A DNA stretch of 64,000 nt from Mobula hypostoma (Eukaryota): assembly GCF_963921235.1 (NCBI RefSeq), contig NC_086097.1, positions 133,922,001 to 133,986,000 on the forward strand, given 5' to 3'. The translations under genes were made by a program, and so were the position numbers. Position 1 is the stretch's first letter, and every line of letters starts with the position of its first letter. Positions 19,403 to 60,000 of this stretch are shown here, in pieces. The notes beneath the pieces are model-generated. The model saw only the letters and a program-made list of their open reading frames with translations, ran no database searches and was not told where the DNA came from.

Positions 19403-19682
19403 GATGGAAGTGACTGACCTCTGCAATTGGCAGCTATCCAGTTGTTGGGCTTTTTGTGACATGAATCCACCACTTGTTCAATGGCACCAACCAATCACCA
19501 TGCAGCAATTTCCAGCAAGGGCTAACTTACCCTCAAATGATATCCACCAAATAGACTTAATCATATGAATAGCATAAAGACCAGGTTGGGTCTGAAATCA
19601 CAGTTAGATTCTCCTCAATTTTGGGTAGTTCCTGTCACTTGTTCTTAAATTATCAATTAAGGGAGGGGGGAAAAAGAGGAGA

Positions 19683-20189
19683 GTGGTAGTGATAGGGGAC
19701 TCAATAGTTAGAGGTGCAGATAGGAGGTTCTGTCATCATGACAGAGAATCCAGGATGGTTTGTTGCCTCCCGGGTGCCAGGGTCAAGGATGTCTCTGATC
19801 GATTGCATGACATTCTGAAGTGGGAGGGTGATCAGCCAGATGTCGTAGTGCACATCGGTACCAATGACATAGCAAGGAAGAGTGAGGAGGTCCTGGAGAG
19901 TGAGTATAGAGAGCTTGGTAGGAAGTTGAAAAGCAGGACCTCGAGGGTGGTAATCTCAGGATTGCTACCTGTGCTACATGCCAGTGAGGGTAGGAATAGG
20001 ATGCTCTGGAGGATGAACAAGTGGCTGAGGAACTGGTGCAGGGAGCAGGGTTTCAGATTTCAGGATCATTGGGACCTCTTCTGGGGCAGGTGGGACCTGT
20101 ACAAGAGAGACGGGTTACACTTGAACCACAGGGGGACCAATATCCTTTCAGGGAGATTTGTTAATGCTATTGGGGAGGCTTTAAACTAG
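19683..20189 (+). pseudogene. CR1 ORF1 C-terminal SGNH/GDSL esterase domain (5'-truncated)
   Basis: Blocks VIGDSIVR, CLPGA, VVHIGTND and DGLHLN, i.e. the Ser, Gly, Asn and DxxH motifs of SGNH hydrolases. Confidence 0.9.
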
Positions 20190-20191
20190 AT

Positions 20192-23119
20192 TTGCAGGGG
20201 GATGGGAACCACAGTGCCAGAGCTGACAGTGTGGTTGGGGTGAAAATAAATGATGTTAAAAGTTCAAGCAAATCCGCTAATAGAAAGGTTGTGAGTGGTG
20301 GTAAAAATCTTCTGAGGTGTACATATTTCAATGCTAGGAGTATTGCGGGGAAGGCAGATGAGTTGAGGGTGTGGATTGACACGTGGAATCATGACGTTAT
20401 AGCAATTAGTGAAACTTGGCTACAGGAGGGGCAGGACTGGCAGCTTAATATTCCAGGGTTCCGATGTTTCAGATGTGATCGAGGCAGAGGAATGAAAGGT
20501 GGCGGAGTAGCATTGCTTGTTAGGGAAAATATTACAGCAGTGCTCAGGCAGGACAGATTAGAGGGCTTGTCTACTGAGTCTTTATGGGTGGTGCTGAGAA
20601 ACAGGAAAGATATGGCCACATTAGTGGGATTGTATTACAGACCACCCAATAGTCAATGAGAATTGGAAGAGCAAATCTGCAGAGAGATAGCAGGCAACTG
20701 CAGGAAACATTAAGTTGTGGTGGTAGGGGATTTTAATTTTCCATATATTGATTGGGTCTCCCATACTGTTAGGGGTCTAGATGGTTTAGAGTTTGTAAAA
20801 TGTGTTCAGGAAAGTTTTCTAAATCAATATATAGAGGGACCAACTAGAGGGGATGCAATATTGGATCTCCTGTTAGGAAACGAGTTAGGACAAGTGACAG
20901 AAGTCTGTGTAGGGGAGCACTTTGGTTCCAGTGATGATAACACCATTAGTTTCAACTTGATCATGGACAAGGATAGATCTGGTCCTAGGGTTGAGGTTCT
21001 TAACTGGAAGAAGGCCAAATTTGAGAAAATGAGAAAGGATCTAAAAAGTGTGGATTGGGACAGGTTGTTCTCTGGCAAGGATGTGATCGGTAAGTGGGAA
21101 ACCTTCAAAGGAGAAATTTTGAGAGTGCAGAATTTGTATGTTCCTGTCAGGATTAAAGGCAAAGTGAATAGGAATAAGGAACCTTGGTTCTCAAGGGATA
21201 TTGCAACTCTGGTAAAGAAAAAGAGGGAGTTGTATGACATGTATAGGAAGCAGGGAGTAAATAAGGTGCTTGAGGAGTATAAGAAGTGCAAGAAAATACT
21301 TAAGAAAGAAATCAGGAGGGCTAAAAGAAGACATGAGGTTGCCTTGGCAGTCAAAGTGAAGGATAATCCAAAGAGCTTTTACAGGTATATTAAGAGCAAA
21401 AAGATTGTAAGGGATAAAATTGGTCCTCTTGAAGATCAGAGTGGTCGGCTATGTGCGGAACCAAAGGAAATGGGGGAGATCTTAAATAGGTTTTTTGCAT
21501 CTGTATTTACTAAGGAAACTGGCATGAAGTCTATGGAATTAAGGGAAACAAGTAGTGAGATCATGGAAACTGTACAGATCAAAAAGGAGGAGGTCCTTGC
21601 TGTCTTGAGGAAAATTAAAGTGGATAAATCCCCGGGAAGTAACAGGGAGTTCCCTCGGACCTTGAAGGAGACTAGTGTTGAAATTGCAGGAGCCCTGGCA
21701 GAAATATTTAAAATGTCGCTGTCTACAGGTGTGGTTCCGGAGGATTGAAGAGTGGCTCATGTTGTTCTGTTGTTTAAAAAAGGATCGAAAAATAATCCGG
21801 GAAATAATAGGCCAGTAAATTTAACGTCAGTAGTAGGTAAGTTATTGGAGGGAGTACTAAGAGACAGAATCTACAAGCATTTGGATAGACAGGGACTTAT
21901 TAGGGAGAGTCAACATGGCTTTGTGCGTGGTAGGTCATGTTTGACCAATCTATTGGAGTTTTTCGAGGAGGTTACCAGGAAAGTGGATGAAGGGAAGGCA
22001 GTGGATATTGTCTACATGGACTTCAGTAAGGCTTTTGACAAGGCCCCACATGGGAGGTTAGTTAGGAAAATTCAGTCGCTAGGTATACATGGAGAGGTGG
22101 TAAATTGGATTAGACGTTGGCTCAATGGAAGAAGCCAAAGAGTGGTAGTAGAGAATTGCTTCTCCGAGTGGAGGCCTGTGACTAGTGGTATGCCACAGGG
22201 ATCAGTGCTGGGTCCATTGTTATTTATCATCTATATCAATGATCTGGATGATAATGTGGTAAATTGGATCAGCAAATTTGCTGATGATATAAAGACTGGA
22301 GGTGTAGTAGACAGTGAGGAAGGTTTTCAGAGCCTGCAGAGGGACTTGGACCAGCTGGAAAAATGGGCTGAAAAATGGCAGATGGAGTTTAATACAGACA
22401 AGTGTGAGGTATTGCATGTTGGAAGGACAAACCAAGGTAGAACATACAGGGTTAATGGTAAGGCACTGAGGAGTGCAGTGGAACAGAGGGATCTGGGAAT
22501 ACAGATACAAAATTCCCTAAAAGTGGCGTCACAGGTAGATAGGGTCATAAAGAGAGCTTTTGGTACATTGGCCTTTATTAATCAAAGTATTGAGTATAAG
22601 AGCTGAAATGTTATGATGAGGTTGTATAAGGCATTGGTGAGGCCGAATCTGGAGTATTGTGTTCAGTTTTGGTCACCAAATTACAGGAAGGATATAAATA
22701 AGGTTGAAAGAGTGCAGAGAAGGTTTACAAGGATGTTGCCGGGACTTGAGAAACTCAGTTACAGAGAAAGGTTGAATAGGTTAGGACTTTATTCCCTGGA
22801 GCGTAGAAGAATGAGGGGAGATTTGATAGAGGTATATAAAATTATGATGGGTATTGATAGAGTGAATGCAAGCAGGCTTTTTCCACTGAGGCAAGGGGAG
22901 AAAAAAACCAGAGGAGATGGGTTAAGGGTGAGGGGGGAAAAGTTTAAAGGGAACATTGGGGGGGGCTTCTTCACACAGAGAGTGGTGGGAGTATGGAATG
23001 AGCTGCCAGACGAGGTGGTAAATGTGGGTTCTTTTTTAACATTTAAGAATAAATTGGACAGATACATGGATGGGAGGTGTATGGAGGGATATGGTCCGTG
23101 TGCAGGTCAGTGGGACTAG
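20192..23119 (+). pseudogene. CR1 ORF2 (AP endonuclease + reverse transcriptase), single frame with four nonsense codons
   Basis: YFNARSI, ISETW, YYRPP, VVGDFN, LDLLL (APE); SQHGF, YMDFSKAFD, PQGSVLGP, KFADD (RT). ORF-track pieces starting at 20192, 20717, 21752 and 22613 share one frame; stops at 20657, 20711, 21746 and 22604. Confidence 0.95.
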
Positions 23120-23477
23120 GCAGAAAATGGTTCGGCACAGCCAAGAAAGGCCAAAAGGCCTGTTTCTGTGCTGTAGTTTCTATGGTTTCTATGGTTTCAT
23201 TAAAAATACCAGTCTGCATTCCTACAACACCTCCACTACAAGCATCTTAGATTGGGTTGGTTTATTATTGTTATACGTACCAAGAGCTAATGAAAATATT
23301 TTGTCTTGAATGACATCCAGGAAGATCATTCCGCACATTGAGGTAGCTCAATATTCAATGTTAAATGTAAATTTATTATCAAAGTACATGTATGTCATGA
23401 TATACAACCCTGAGATTTATTCTGTGGGCATTCACAGTAAATACAAGGAACAATTATAATAATAACAATAATAATAA

Positions 23478-24250
23478 GATCTGAGTAGATTGGATATCAA
23501 CAAAGAAGTGTTAAATGCCTGGCTCAGAGTTGGAGACCTCTTCCCAGAAACAGGACCAGGTGGTTAACACAAAAAATTATCAAGAATACACACTATACTA
23601 AAAGAACAATAAATTCAAGATGATAAATGCAAAAAAAGTGCCAAGAGAAACCAGAAACAATCGAACACTTTACAGAATCTTGCAGCAGTTTAACTCAGTC
23701 TGATTATTTACACAGGCACAATCAAGAGGCAAACATCATTCACCAAAACCTTGCTTTAAAATACAATCTTGTAAAAGACACCATGCCTTACTATAAATAT
23801 AACCCTGATCTAGTTTTAGAGTCAGAGCCCTACAAGTTATATTGTGACTGATCTATTATTACAGATAGGATAATCCATAGTAACTGTCCAGCTATATCAT
23901 TACAGGATAAATAAGCAAAAACAACTTACTTACTAGATATAGCCATTCCAAATACACGTAACATACTGAAATCAAGAGGTGAAAAAGACCAGAAATATGC
24001 TGAATTAAAAAAGGAAATTGAAAGACTATGGATCATGAACTTGATAGACATTGGCCCAACAGTAATATCTGCAACAGGTCTCATCCCAAAGTCACTACAC
24101 AATAGTCTACACAGCAGTATTTACGTAAATTTCCAGAAAGACGCCATATTAAACGCCACTAGAATAGTCCGAAGGTTCCTAGCTATTGAGAAATGTGTGT
24201 GCTTGACTATGCCTGTATGTCAGGTTTCAGCAGCTTGAGCTGAGAAAAAG
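23478..24250 (+). mobile_element. R4/Dong-clade non-LTR retrotransposon 3' fragment (CCHC knuckle + restriction-like endonuclease)
   Basis: Degenerate translation ...DKC../CQEKPETIEHFTESC..YLHRHNQ..IIHQNLA..PYYKYNPDLVLE..SIITDR..NCPAI(=NRPDI)..LLDIAIP..EKDQKYAEL..ISATGLIPKSL; preceded by a (TAA)n tract at 23455-23477. Confidence 0.82.
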
Positions 24251-30987: not shown

Positions 30988-32115
30988 TCTGATCAGAACA
31001 GAGTGGTAATCTATGCATCGAGCCAAAAGAGATGGGGGAGATCTTAAATGGAGTTTTTTGCATCTATATTTACTCAGAACATAGAAGTAAGGCAAAGCAG
31101 AAGTGAGGCCATGACCCTATACAGCATTTAGAGGAGGAGGTATTTACTGTCTTGAGGCAAATCAGGGTAGACAAATCCTCAGGTCCTGACAAGGTGTTCC
31201 CTCAGACCATGTGGGAGGCAAGTGCAGAAATTGCAGTGGCCCTGCAGGGACATTTAAATCATCCTTAGCGACAGGTGATTGGAGGATAGCAAATGTTGTT
31301 CCACTGTTTCAGAAAGGCTCTAAGAATAAACCAGGAAATTGCATGCTTGGTGACCCTGACGTCAGTAGTGGGAATGTTATTGGAAGGTATTCTAAGAGAC
31401 CGGATATATGAGTATTTGGATAGACAAGGATTGATTGGGGATAATCAGCATGGCTGTGTGCATGGTTGAGCATGTCTAACCATTCTTATTAAGTTTCTGA
31501 GGCTGTTACCAGGAAATTTGATGGAATCAAGGCAGTGGATGTTGTTTTCATGGACTTCATCAAGGCATTTGACAAGTTCCTGCATGAGAGGTTGCTCAAG
31601 AAGTTTCAGTCACTCGGCATTCAGGATGAAGTAGTAAAATGGATTAGACATTGGCTTTGCAGAAGAAGCCAGAGAGTGGAAGTAGATGGTTGCCTCTCTG
31701 ACTGGAGGCCTGTAACTCGGTGCTGGGTCTGTTGTTGTTTGCCATCTATTTGAACGATCTGGATGATATCATGATTAACTGTATCAACAAATTTGTGAAT
31801 AACACCAAGACTGGGGGTGTAGAGGACAGACAGGAAGACTATCAAAGCTGGACCAGCTGGAAAAATGGACTGAAAAATGACAGATGGAATTTAATGTAGA
31901 CATGTGTGAGGTGCTGCACTTTGGGAGGACCAATCAGAGTAGGTCTTACACAATAAGCAGTAGGGCACTGAGGAGTGCTGTAAAACCAATGGATCTGCAA
32001 ATATAGGTCCATAATCAATTGAAAGTGGCTTTATGGCTAGATAGGGTCTTTAAGATGGCTTTTGGCATATTGGCCTTCATAGATCAGAGTACTGAGTACA
32101 GGAGTTGGGATGTTT
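30988..32115 (+). mobile_element. Older degraded CR1 ORF2 fragment related to the 19661-23198 element
   Basis: Colinear with ~21435-22610 (e.g. DWRIANVVPLFQKGSK, VDVVFMDFIKAFDK), with many indels. Confidence 0.88.
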
Positions 32116-35379: not shown

Positions 35380-35970
35380 AATTCAAGAGCCATGAGGTAG
35401 TGTTACAGCTATATAAGACCTTGGTCAGACCCCAATTGGACTATTGTGTTCAGTCCTGGTCACCTCATTACAGGAAGGATGTAGATACTCTAGAAAGACT
35501 GCAGAGATTTACAAAGATGTTGTCTGGATTGGAGAGCATGCCTTATGAGAATAGGTTGAGTGAACTTGGCTTTTTCTCCTTGGAGCGACATAGGATGAGA
35601 GGTGACGTGATAGAGGTGTATAAGATGATGAGAGGCATTGAACATGTGGAAAGCCAAAGGCTTTTTCCCAGGGCTGAAGTGGCTAATATGAGGGGATGTA
35701 GTTTTAAGGTGCTCGGAAATAGGTACAGAGGGGATGTCGGGGTAAGCTTTTCACGCAGAGAGTGGTGTGTGTGGAATGCACTGCTGGCGACGGTGGTGGA
35801 GGCGGATACAGTAGGGTCTTTTACAAGACTCTTAGATAGGTACGTGGAGCTTAAAAAATAGAGGGCTAAGCGTTAGGGTAATTCTAGGAAGATTGTAGAC
35901 TAGGTTACATGGTCGGCACAACATTGTAGGCCAAAGGGCCTGGAATGTGCTGTAGATTTCTATGTTCTAG
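35380..35970 (+). mobile_element. CR1 3'-end fragment
   Basis: ORF LQLYKTLVRPQLDYCVQSWSPHYRKD...RMRGDVIEVYKMMRG; ends tgtgctgtagatttctatgttcta. Confidence 0.9.
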
Positions 35971-43960: not shown

Positions 43961-45379
43961 GAACCTAAGAATTGGCTAACATACTTATAATGACCAAGAA
44001 GGAGGTCATTTCACCCATCCGAAGATCAATCCTATCAATCCACTTGTCTTATTCCCAGTACATCTGCAACAAATTCTCTCTCAAATGCTCAGTTACTTTC
44101 CTTTCTACTAACTAGACTGAAGGACAACCTGCAGTACTAATCATCCTCACTAAATCCCAGAGTACCTAAACCACAGCTTGAACGTGATAAGGAATAGCGC
44201 AGGGTGTTTCACAGGAGTGCATCAAATTCCAATGCAGTGCCATACATCTTAGGGTTGAGAAACAGGAGTTTAATTAATGAGGTAGGTTTTAGGGAACATC
44301 TTTAGAAAAAGAACAGCGTGCTTCCACAAGATGTTTTGCAGAACTTCAGGGAGTATCAAGGTGCTTTATTTTGTGAAGGAGGCCAGCGAGATACTTATGA
44401 ACTGTAAGCTCAGTTGTCATGTAGCAGTAAACATGAGCACAGCAAGATCTCCTGAAGTGCATTGTGATCTGATTCAGTTACTTCCTACTTCGGATAGTTA
44501 AAGGAGCAAACATTGGGCGGGACTTGGGAAATAAGTACTCTACTCCATGAAACTGTGCCATAGAATATTCAGTGACTGCCTAATATAGCAGATTATGCTC
44601 TGGTTTACCTCCCAAAAGATAGCAAGTTTAAGGGGAAGATGAGGGCAAACTTTTTCACTCAGGGAGTTGTAAGAATGTAGAACAAGCTGCCAGCCCAAGT
44701 GATGCATGCAAGCTTGATTCCACCATTTAAGAGAAGTTTGGATAGGTACATGGATGTTAGGAGTATGGAGTGCTATGGTCCCAGTGCAGGTTGATGGGAG
44801 TAGGCAATTTAAATGGTTCGGCACAGACTAGATGGGCCGAAGGGCCTGTTTCTGTGCTGTACTTTTTTTTATGGCCATATGACTCTCTAAAAGACAGCAC
44901 TGTTGACTATGCCACATGTCTTTGGCACAGCACTGGAGGGTCAGCCTTCATCTTTTCACTGTGTGTAAATTGACATGTTCTTTCTCCACTACAACTGTAA
45001 CTACAGTCTAAATGTGCTTCAACAGCTATGAACTGGTTTGGGATTTTGCAAAATCATGTAAATATAAATCTTTCCTTGCAGTTTCTATGGCTCATGCCAA
45101 AAAAAGATACTATCAGAAATACTGGATTTAAAAAGTTGTCCTAAGTAGTGCAGTGACAAACTATTTATACTCTGTAGATGAGTTTCTATGCTGTTTAATG
45201 ACCACGTTTATAGGGTGATTACATGGCATTTCTAACACCATTCCTAATGATTTTCAGATCCTGAAGCCCACTCCATTCAGCTTTGGTTAAGGGTATTCAT
45301 GGCAATTGGTCACATGCTTTCCCTAAATACACCATTCAGCTAAGTAGCCCTTTCTGCTGACAATTTGATATTTGGAGAC

Positions 45380-57042: not shown

Positions 57043-60000
57043 CTACTGTTTCTCAAACTCAGTTACATATAACAGATGGTCCTCTGGAGACTTGCCATGT
57101 GTTTTGCTAAGGTGCAATTTGACCGCATGTTTGCTTACAAATGTCCTGTTGCACATTTTACACTGGAATGTCGAGTTTACATCCTCCTCGGACATCCCAA
57201 CTGAGTTCACGGACCTATTTGGTATCACCTTAGAAACCGCCTGCTGCTCGCGAAGCTGCTCTACCGATAACTTGGAGAGATCCTTCATAGAAAACCCCAG
57301 GTGAGTCTCCAGGTGAGCTATGTAGCTGGAAGGAGTCCTAAACTGTGAGGCACAATCATTACAGAAGAAAACCGGGTGACCCGTGTCTAAGTTCTTCAGG
57401 AATTTCGTTCCACCTGTCCTTCTTAACTGATATTTGACGTTGGCTAGCCAATGGCTTATCGTGGTCATGGAGAGGCCAGTGAACTTTGAAATGTGTACCC
57501 GCTCGTGGAGGTTTAAGTCCGACATGATGTATTTGCCTTCGGAAGACTCCCGTAAGCTGGCTGCAAATTGAGCTTGCAGCATCAGGAGGTGTTGGGGGTT
57601 CCAGTTAGACTGCCTGCCCTTCCTTTTCTGGACGGGAGAGACATCCTCCAAGGTTTCCTCGAAGCTGCTGGCATCGGCTTCCGACTTCTCCGACACCGTA
57701 GAGGGGGTTGACGACTTGGGCGTCAGCCGTCCCGTGAGGTTCTTCACCATGTCAGAGATGTCCAACAGCGCATTTTCCCGTGATGTGGAGAGAATCGTTT
57801 CCGTCATGGCTGAAATGAGCTTCTTGTTGCTTTTCGATTTGGTTAAGTCTATTGGCTGATCATTATTTTCATAGTAGTACCGGTCCACAATGTCCGCCTG
57901 CTTGACCTGAGTGGCAGGGAAGATGGGCTTGTCCAGCACACTGTTGCTGATTTTGTACAGCATGGCCAAGGGGTCAAGACTGGGACTTAGGGGCTTGGCT
58001 GCCTTGCCCAAGTGTGTGTTCATAATTGACTGGAGAGCACTGAGCGGATTGACAAATGGCGACTCAGGTGACTGGTCAGTGATAATTGCCATACTGTTAC
58101 AGCCATTGCTGACCGTTGACCTAAAACACTCCGTCCCATTTGGGAAAGAGCCATCCAAATTGGTCTCCTTCTTCACTTTCACCTCCTGGCCATCGCTGTT
58201 TCTCAATGGTTGGATTGAAACGTCACTGTCTTCGGCCCTGGGTGAGTCCCTCACAGCTGGGGATGAGGAGCCGCAGGCAGCCTTGATTCTGGGAGCGGCT
58301 GCCTGCTCTTTCTCCACAGCCTTCTCTTCTGCCTTGATGGTCATTTTGCCCGTGACCTTCTCCACCAGCTCTTCCATGGCATGGACATTGCTCTTCTGAG
58401 GCGGCGGTGACTGGCACTCTGAGGGCTCCACGACAGCGAGATGCTCGGAAGATGGGGCCTTCAGGTTGTTGGTGTAGAACGGGGTTGATTGGGCGTTCTG
58501 CCCTGTTGTTTGAAAGGGTCTGATCGCTCCTGAGAGCTGATAAGCAGCATGAATGCTTGGATAGCCTCCCCACGTGGGAGCGCCATTCTGGGCTTTGTTG
58601 ATGGCGGAGGTGACCGTGTTCTCCAGAGACTTCAGGATATCAATACCGCCTTTAGGACTCTCATCCAAATCTTCCTCCCGCAGATACTGGTACTGGGAAG
58701 TGGATTCAAACTTTTCATCATGATCATCCCTCTCCTCCTTTATCTCCCTCTCCTTCTCGTCCTCCTCTGCCGGCTCTTCTTCCTGCTCCTTCCCCTCGTC
58801 AGCCAGCGGCGGTGGCGAGGTTTCAGGCTTGGCTTGGGCAGTGGGTGCCACCAGCCGTGCCGGGGTGGAGGGGGGCAAGGGAATGGACTGGATCTTCTCC
58901 TCGGCCACCGCGTCGAACACCAGCTGCTTGCCCTTCTTTGAGGCGGAGTTGGTGACCTTGAGGAAGTGCCCAGTCACCATCATGTGCGCCGTCAGCTGCT
59001 GCAAGGTGTCGTGGGAGCTCCCGCACTCCATGCACTTGAGGATCTGCGCCTTGCGGGCCTCGAACTGCCAGGTGTAGCTGGCGCCATTCTGGTAGCCGTA
59101 GCGGTTGTTAGGAGTCACGTAAGGATTGGCCGCTTTCTGGGCTGAGGCCGACTCTCCAGCAGACAGGCCTGAGGGATTTGGGGCAGACTCTGGAGAGCAG
59201 GGCGGAGGTTCCTGAGGTGCCCTCCTCTTGTTGGGAGGCAGAAGCTTGGAGGCCAAGGCCGGCACAGGCTCCTTGAGGGGCACCTTCTGATAGTGCTTGG
59301 TCTTGATCATGTGAACGCTGAGGTCCTGCAGGGACTCGAAGGAGTGGCCACAGTACATGCACTTGAGGACCTTCTGGGCGTCCTCCTTGCCCTCCATCTC
59401 CATGAGGGAGCGTTTCCTGGGCTTGGACCACTTGCGGGGGTTGTCGGGGTCCCGATCGCGGTTGTCATCGCGGTAGTGGCCGGTCTCGTTCATGTGCACA
59501 GTCAGCTCTACCAGGGTGTCGTAGGCCGAGCTACAGTCCTTGCAGCGGAACTTGCTGGCGCCGGTGAACACCGACCCAAACAGTTTGTTCTGCTGCCTAT
59601 ACAGCTGCACGGTGCTGAACAGGCTGGGTTCGGGGATGATTCCATAGGAGGTCTGCTGCAGCGTCTTGGCCAGAGCGGCCTGGTGCCAGTCGTAGCCCAC
59701 ACCTCCGCCGCTGCCGTTGTGACTGCTGCCGTTGCTGCTGCCACTGCCACTGGCCTGGTTGGCCGTCTTCAGGTCCAGGCCCAGGCTGGTCCAGTAGGAG
59801 CTGCTCAGCAGGTTGGAGTAGGCCGCCTTCATCTGCGCCAGGCTGTCCCGTGACGCCGGCAGCCTGTCCTCGGCCAGCCCCTCCTCCCGCTCCTGCCCGT
59901 CCTTGGACGAGACGCTCCGCAAATCTGCCAGCTGGTCGCTGGCGTCGCTGACAGGCGACCTACTGCCCGGCTCAGGATTGGCTGTCATGCTGGCTGGTGA

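Follow-up and report, generated by a model that had tools for sequence, protein, structure and literature searches.

How ribosomes reach the second reading frame of a CR1 element is the question raised by a LINE copy on the forward strand of a 64,000-nucleotide stretch of the Mobula hypostoma genome (contig NC_086097.1, positions 133,922,001 to 133,986,000; the whole stretch is called the window below). The copy carries the end of an esterase-encoding ORF1 and an ORF2 for an AP endonuclease and a reverse transcriptase (RT), the RT domain being located at about 21788-22441 (Table 1). The original prediction was that a -1 programmed ribosomal frameshift at the sequence U_UUA_AAC joins the two frames. 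The copy itself is dead: it is truncated at its 5′-end, and its ORF2 contains four premature stops (20657, 20711, 21746 and 22604) and no frame changes. Therefore, the question concerns the CR1 family and not this single copy. In the comparison with the natural copy L131 the aligned stretch of the window copy was 19659-23197, and ATTAA at 19656 and 23199 is a possible, weak 5-nt target duplication flanking the copy.

Judged by its architecture, its homologues and the features of CR1 elements, the element probably belongs to the CR1 clade and not to L2 or Crack. Its ORF2 encodes an endonuclease of the APE type and an RT, its ORF1 encodes an SGNH esterase homologous to the ORF1 of vertebrate CR1, it has short tandem repeats at the 3′-end and a truncated 5′-end, and poly(A) and LTRs are missing. 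Among the named homologues, those of rays and sharks are the closest. Older CR1 fragments in the window (30995-32114, 35412-35668 and 44724-44865) were 72-80% identical to the window copy and did not include the junction. A frame of 107 codons on the forward strand at 23915-24238 may correspond to a nuclease region at the C-terminus of a different non-LTR element. The region 58001-60000 had a GC content of 0.59, compared to about 0.42 elsewhere, and is possibly a CpG island. In the genome, CR1 copies were often found inside or beside copies of different subfamilies (L131, L133, L012, L052, L142).

At the junction, the ORF1 codons GCT TTA AAC TAG confirmed that TTTAAAC is in the X_XXY_YYZ register directly in front of the stop codon. 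UUUAAAC is a -1 slippery heptamer in coronaviruses. It was also verified that ORF2 lies in the -1 frame and is open across the heptamer, from 20165 to 20659, and that it has no AUG until 20492, which is residue 105 counted from the heptamer and thus beyond the endonuclease motifs NARS (51) and SETW (77). The two strands of the window together contain 23 copies of TTTAAAC but a single TTTAAACTAR. Given this single occurrence and the conservation across subfamilies described below, the junction heptamer is more than a chance match.

Table 1. Features of the CR1 copy and of its ORF1/ORF2 junction (positions in the window)
Feature	Position	Strand	Evidence or remark
CR1-type LINE copy, subfamily A, 5′-truncated, inactive	19661..23198	+	95.6% identity over 3540 nt to natural copy L131
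ORF1, 3′ part, SGNH/GDSL esterase domain, ends Leu-Asn-TAG	19662..20189	+	Pfam PF13472 (E 6.9e-15); homologues
Last -1-frame stop (TAA) upstream of the junction	20162..20164	+	Overlap of the frames ahead of the heptamer is thereby 5 codons
Putative slippery heptamer U_UUA_AAC (TTTAAAC)	20180..20186	+	Sequence; conserved across subfamilies
AUG-less linker, -1 frame, from shift site to endonuclease	20186..20323	+	Subfamily A: open in 45 of 49 anchored copies, AUG-less in 43
ORF1 stop TAG, abuts the heptamer (TAG or TAA by subfamily)	20187..20189	+	Heptamer plus TAR in 134 of 157 junctions
G-rich motif GGGGG-NN-GG(G), candidate stimulator	20197..20206	+	Separated from the heptamer by 10 nt
ORF2, AP endonuclease and reverse transcriptase	20324..23119	+	Pfam PF03372, PF14529, PF00078
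3′ tail, short TTCTATG-type repeats, no poly(A)	23163..23198	+	Sequence

To compare the junction across the family, 185 loci of the same genome were collected, with the junction DNA and ORF1 proteins ranging from close to distant as queries and with 20 further stretches added. The C-terminal region of ORF1 without its last six residues was used as anchor. This yielded 202 anchors, and after removal of duplicates, identical contexts and seven entries without the GLHL motif, 157 distinct junctions remained, which form nine groups of two or more copies and five singletons. The exact heptamer, located relative to the upstream GLHL motif, was found in 138 of them; among the singletons it was kept in three and differed by one base in two. 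The nine multi-copy subfamilies are well separated, with ORF1 identities of 0.53-0.85 and identities at four-fold sites of 0.43-0.78. All nine use NNT-TTA-AAC, and the third base of the codon preceding TTA is always T, though four different amino acids are encoded there. The remainder of the esterase served as control: a single codon was kept at none of 16 other invariant six-fold (Leu/Arg/Ser) columns, at 4 of 19 four-fold and at 3 of 13 two-fold columns. Of 66 further columns occupied by at least three amino acids, 5 had an invariant third base. The product of these rates is about 0.001, a rough value since the groups are related; for the same reason the counts of heptamer and phase are not independent. 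Codon use varies at an internal His-Leu-Asn 20 codons upstream of the junction, and the codons -3 to -5 and the flanking base 20179 vary freely. Thus the TTTAAAC-stop arrangement is conserved across copies, with constrained synonymous positions in every multi-copy subfamily, and the heptamer is conserved at the nucleotide level beyond the protein constraint. The 19 junctions without the exact heptamer and the out-of-phase copies described below were attributed to decay after insertion. This presumed decay would be strongest in the old subfamily D, in which none of three anchored copies was open; in groups G and H, with two copies each, one copy of each has lost the stop.

The distance between heptamer and endonuclease could be determined for the 123 of the 157 junctions for which an endonuclease anchor was available. 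It was divisible by three in 103 copies, and 20 were out of phase. The in-phase linker lengths span 141-324 nt and include 141, 144, 150, 156, 189, 195, 198, 204, 210, 225, 252 and 324 nt. Therefore, the length of the linker has changed repeatedly while the phase has not, and the -1 phase is conserved. In 12 representatives, the hand-picked cleanest copy per group, the -1 frame of the linker had no stops apart from one in the old group D, the other two frames had 1-12 stops, and shuffling left a linker open in no more than 2.4% of trials.

ORF2 was open across the site and had no start codon of its own in subfamilies A, C, F, I and Y. An AUG upstream of the endonuclease would speak against the prediction: none that is usable was found in subfamily A or in the youngest family, but three of the nine subfamilies (E, G and H; loci L130, L140-L141 and L142-L143) have an in-frame linker AUG, at codons 19, 20 and 39. 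These positions are unrelated to each other, and the heptamer is kept. Several old D copies also carry a linker AUG, and the decay of D is too advanced for its linker to be confirmed as open. In these cases reinitiation could take place. An AUG of the SART1 type, which overlaps or adjoins the ORF1 stop in the ORF2 frame, was not found in the anchored junctions or the representatives; one copy, L141, has an ATG at codon 4, and its sister L140 does not. In subfamily E (L091-L110) a G run of variable length precedes the heptamer, and in copies with an extra G ORF1 reads into ORF2 in one DNA-level frame, like the database proteins P0013 and P0015.

An early start codon is also absent in the youngest CR1 family, the copies of which are 99.0-100% identical (about 99.8%). 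It comprises L111-L128 (e.g., L127:2176-6123), and more than 120 matches to its ORF1 were scored at 98-100%. Its frames of 311 and 1004 codons are intact, and it is probably recently or currently active. L127 and L128 have 1004 open codons from the heptamer region on, endonuclease and RT included, and in 13 of 15 loci the -1 frame was open beyond the start of the endonuclease. Upstream, a stop in the -1 frame lies two codons ahead of the heptamer, so that the overlap is two codons compared to five in the window copy. The first Met of the ORF2 frame is residue 207, adjoining GDFN (208) and after NARS (78) and TETW (104), and therefore an AUG start would cost most of the endonuclease.

Sequences of other organisms were also compared. 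Contigs of four organisms (195, 2392, 893 and 3588 contigs), aligned at a likeness of at least 80%, which biases the selection towards conservation, had no alternative base at a frequency of at least 15% at 20180-20188 or 20192-20209. In the same contigs position 20179 varied in 71-95% of the depth and position 20189 (TAG/TAA) in 12-20%. At the protein level, to which the evidence beyond cartilaginous fish is confined, Leu-Asn was terminal in 56 of the 61 ORF1 homologues whose end lies as far from DGLHL as expected (sharks, rays, coelacanth, frogs and turtle); the five exceptions include a chimaera entry ending with LNY. A turtle-seeded search yielded 102 proteins, 61 of them with the motif and 48 at the expected distance, and all of these 48 tetrapod-type sequences, from turtles, alligator, birds, lizards, snake and frogs, end with Leu-Asn. 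The residue before Leu lacked a U-ending codon in only one of the 56 homologues, compared to 35 for the residue in front of it; the test is weakened by the fact that K/E/Q/M/W are avoided at positions -6 and -7 as well. The database proteins P0013, P0015, P0023 and P0130 cross the junction as FKL...G.G, in the frame of ORF2, and show the same ORF1/ORF2 phase in other sources. The amniote junction sequence was sought in the searched supplement files of PMC4316615 and PMC8665684 and was not found there. A metagenome scan retrieved ten loci with 24-52% identity, which were taken as unrelated hydrolases, and viral contigs yielded none. The CR1 ORF1 proteins P0090, P0130 and P0193 are filed under bacterial names (Pseudomonas, Proteus, Klebsiella); these records are most likely vertebrate contamination.

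The comparisons of heptamer, phase and AUG positions support the central claim of the original prediction, that a -1 shift joins the esterase ORF1 to an AUG-less ORF2. On this comparative sequence evidence it is likely that -1 programmed frameshifting takes place at the U_UUA_AAC of the CR1 junction and yields an ORF1-ORF2 fusion product. The Leu and Asn tRNAs would slip in tandem by one base, and reading would resume at CUA (20186-88). The majority of ribosomes would terminate and release ORF1p, while a minority would produce a fusion of esterase, linker, endonuclease and RT, with a predicted length of 1313 residues (311 + 1002) in the youngest family.

The stimulator is the least certain part of the frameshift reading. 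The original prediction had named G-runs and a downstream hairpin. The G-runs (20197-20201, 20204-06 and 20237-40) and the hairpin arms AACCACA (20207-13) and TGTGGTT (20230-36) are indeed present, but the hairpin is not conserved. The fold at 20207..20236 had a z of -0.25 against shuffles, and both arms were found in only 1 of 53 subfamily copies, which is the window copy itself. The hairpin was rejected as a stimulator, because it needs two copy-specific substitutions. No local RNA structure was shared by the 12 representative linkers (z from -1.0 to +1.8), and at the canonical spacing of 5-9 nt downstream neither a conserved stem-loop nor a pseudoknot was found in the representatives and the subfamily copies; therefore, the site was not filed as a canonical structure-stimulated -1 frameshift site. 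A long-range partner of the G motif had no common position among eight long natural copies; two of them, L133 and L139, have a pyrimidine 10-mer in common near +2710.

What is conserved downstream of the heptamer is the G-rich motif itself. G was found at +18 to +22 and at +25 and +26, counted from the first T, in all nine multi-copy subfamilies. The motif covers the third base of one codon and the first base of another, both of which encode varied residues, and one Gly within it is always encoded by GGG, a codon used for 29 of 92 Gly in the intact ORF2 of L127. This points to an element acting at the RNA level; the motif may also be kept for a role of the Gly-x-Gly peptide. In 3 of the 12 representatives (Y, G and H) ViennaRNA folded the conserved G run into a two-tier quadruplex, and in three (F) it placed one further downstream, which is treated as a lead only. 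Because the search for a conserved stem-loop or pseudoknot partner found none, the pause probably comes from the adjacent stop codon together with the linear G-rich motif 10 nt downstream, which might bind a protein or form a weak quadruplex. According to a review (PMC5009743), a minority of 3′ frameshift stimulators lie 12-15 nt from the site, are structured or linear and are tied to trans-acting factors, and quadruplexes stimulate frameshifting in synthetic constructs.

Several alternatives to frameshifting were considered. The best of them, though still improbable, is that termination is coupled to reinitiation, or that ribosomes restart without AUG at CUA or a near-cognate codon with the help of the G motif, so that a separate ORF2p is made. 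The overlap of CUA with the stop would have the same geometry as AUGA stop-start sites, three subfamilies have the linker AUG mentioned above, and PMC5009743 describes initiation at L1 ORF2 as AUG-independent. CUA differs from AUG at two bases, however, and while a near-cognate codon is present within the first eight codons in all 12 representatives, its identity and position vary between subfamilies. A restart also leaves unexplained why the six bases UUUAAA in front of the C do not vary.

A separate mRNA for ORF2, made from an internal promoter (a TATA-like TTTAAA plus G box) or by splicing to an acceptor (TTTGCAG/G in subfamily A), is very unlikely. TTTAAA with the G run presumably resembles promoter elements and TTTGCAG/G a splice acceptor, and acceptor-like sequences are present in subfamilies A, E and F, but D, I, M and the youngest family lack the AG at +17/+18. 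In the youngest family the shorter transcript would still offer no AUG upstream of codon 207, and the fixed phase to ORF1 across linker lengths is not predicted by this reading. Among the 15 listed matches of contigs to L127:400-3600, beyond which there are 788 more, no joint was seen at the junction. Equally remote is the absence of any recoding, with Leu-Asn kept for the structure of the esterase and codons and phase kept via descent or recombination between subfamilies: Leu-Asn is invariant at the protein level, 7 of 49 other invariant columns also use a single codon, and this 9-mer is also present at another place in amniote CR1, close to the 3′-end (supplement of PMC4316615), but the three adjacent constrained positions are exactly X_XXY_YYZ, base 20179 and the codons -3 to -5 are free to vary, and ORF2 would still need an entry route.

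The frameshift reading has counterparts in other systems. Retroviral gag-pol and coronavirus ORF1a/1b share with CR1 the in-register X_XXY_YYZ at the end of ORF1, the polymerase in the -1 frame and an expected fusion product at a fixed ratio. In contrast to them, CR1 is a non-LTR element, no conserved stem-loop or pseudoknot at 5-9 nt was found in the CR1 copies compared, and upstream of the heptamer the frames overlap by just 2-5 codons. Protein-stimulated frameshifting is used by arteriviruses (nsp1beta plus PCBP) and cardioviruses, and the linear-looking CR1 motif starting 10 nt after the heptamer may be analogous to it; it differs in being G-rich and in having no known binding factor. Among the closest in kind are the Dictyostelium elements TRE5-A and TRE3-A, two-ORF non-LTR elements of the APE type whose ORF2 is stated to require a -1 frameshift in a passage of PMC5911963. 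They belong to another clade and host; the CR1 site is a canonical heptamer that abuts the stop and is followed by a G-rich motif. With the AUG-independent reinitiation of L1, the UAAUG coupling of SART1 and the LINE 2A elements (PMC3894237 and PMC3708506), CR1 shares the problem of producing ORF2 at a low level from a bicistronic LINE RNA; these elements make a separate ORF2p, while CR1 has no inter-ORF spacer, UAAUG or overlap AUG. Chicken CR1 and turtle PsCR1 resemble the ray element in the esterase ORF1, the APE-RT ORF2 and the 3′ tail of short repeats, and the Leu-Asn-stop end of ORF1 is common to turtle, crocodilian, bird and lizard CR1 homologues, as compared at the protein level.

In the sections covered of PMC3894237 the translation of LINE ORF2 is treated as an open question; reinitiation, stop-start coupling, IRES and 2A are listed there, and frameshifting was not found among the mechanisms. 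The word "frameshift" does not occur in the available text of PMC3708506. "CR1" is absent from the first 300,000 of the 449,034 characters of PMC5009743, where LINE ORF2 is attributed to AUG-independent initiation, and nothing on CR1 ORF2 translation was found in the keyword passages of PMC5006619, PMC11835228, PMC6609765, PMC4255032 and PMC8665684. A proposal of CR1 frameshifting was not found in the literature covered, which excludes most subscription papers, including the full-length CR1 descriptions of 1997 (PMID 9332379 and 9402732). It is our guess that an earlier published remark on it is rather doubtful, but would not be a surprise.

A wider reading is offered tentatively and with less than even confidence: CR1 of jawed vertebrates, from sharks to birds, might produce its RT as a frameshift fusion with an undescribed kind of stimulator, a stop codon plus a linear G motif 10 nt downstream, which would be read by a trans-acting protein, possibly ORF1p, or fold as a two-tier quadruplex. 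The absence of a conventional stimulator is of interest to recoding research. The signal, roughly 40 nt long, lends itself to direct reporter testing, and a young family with intact frames is present in the genome. If frameshifting is true, CR1 would make a gag-pol-like fusion, and the annotated ORF2 starts would be wrong for the CR1 clade. In that case the esterase would be covalently tied to the endonuclease and the RT, which would be a simple route to cis-preference.
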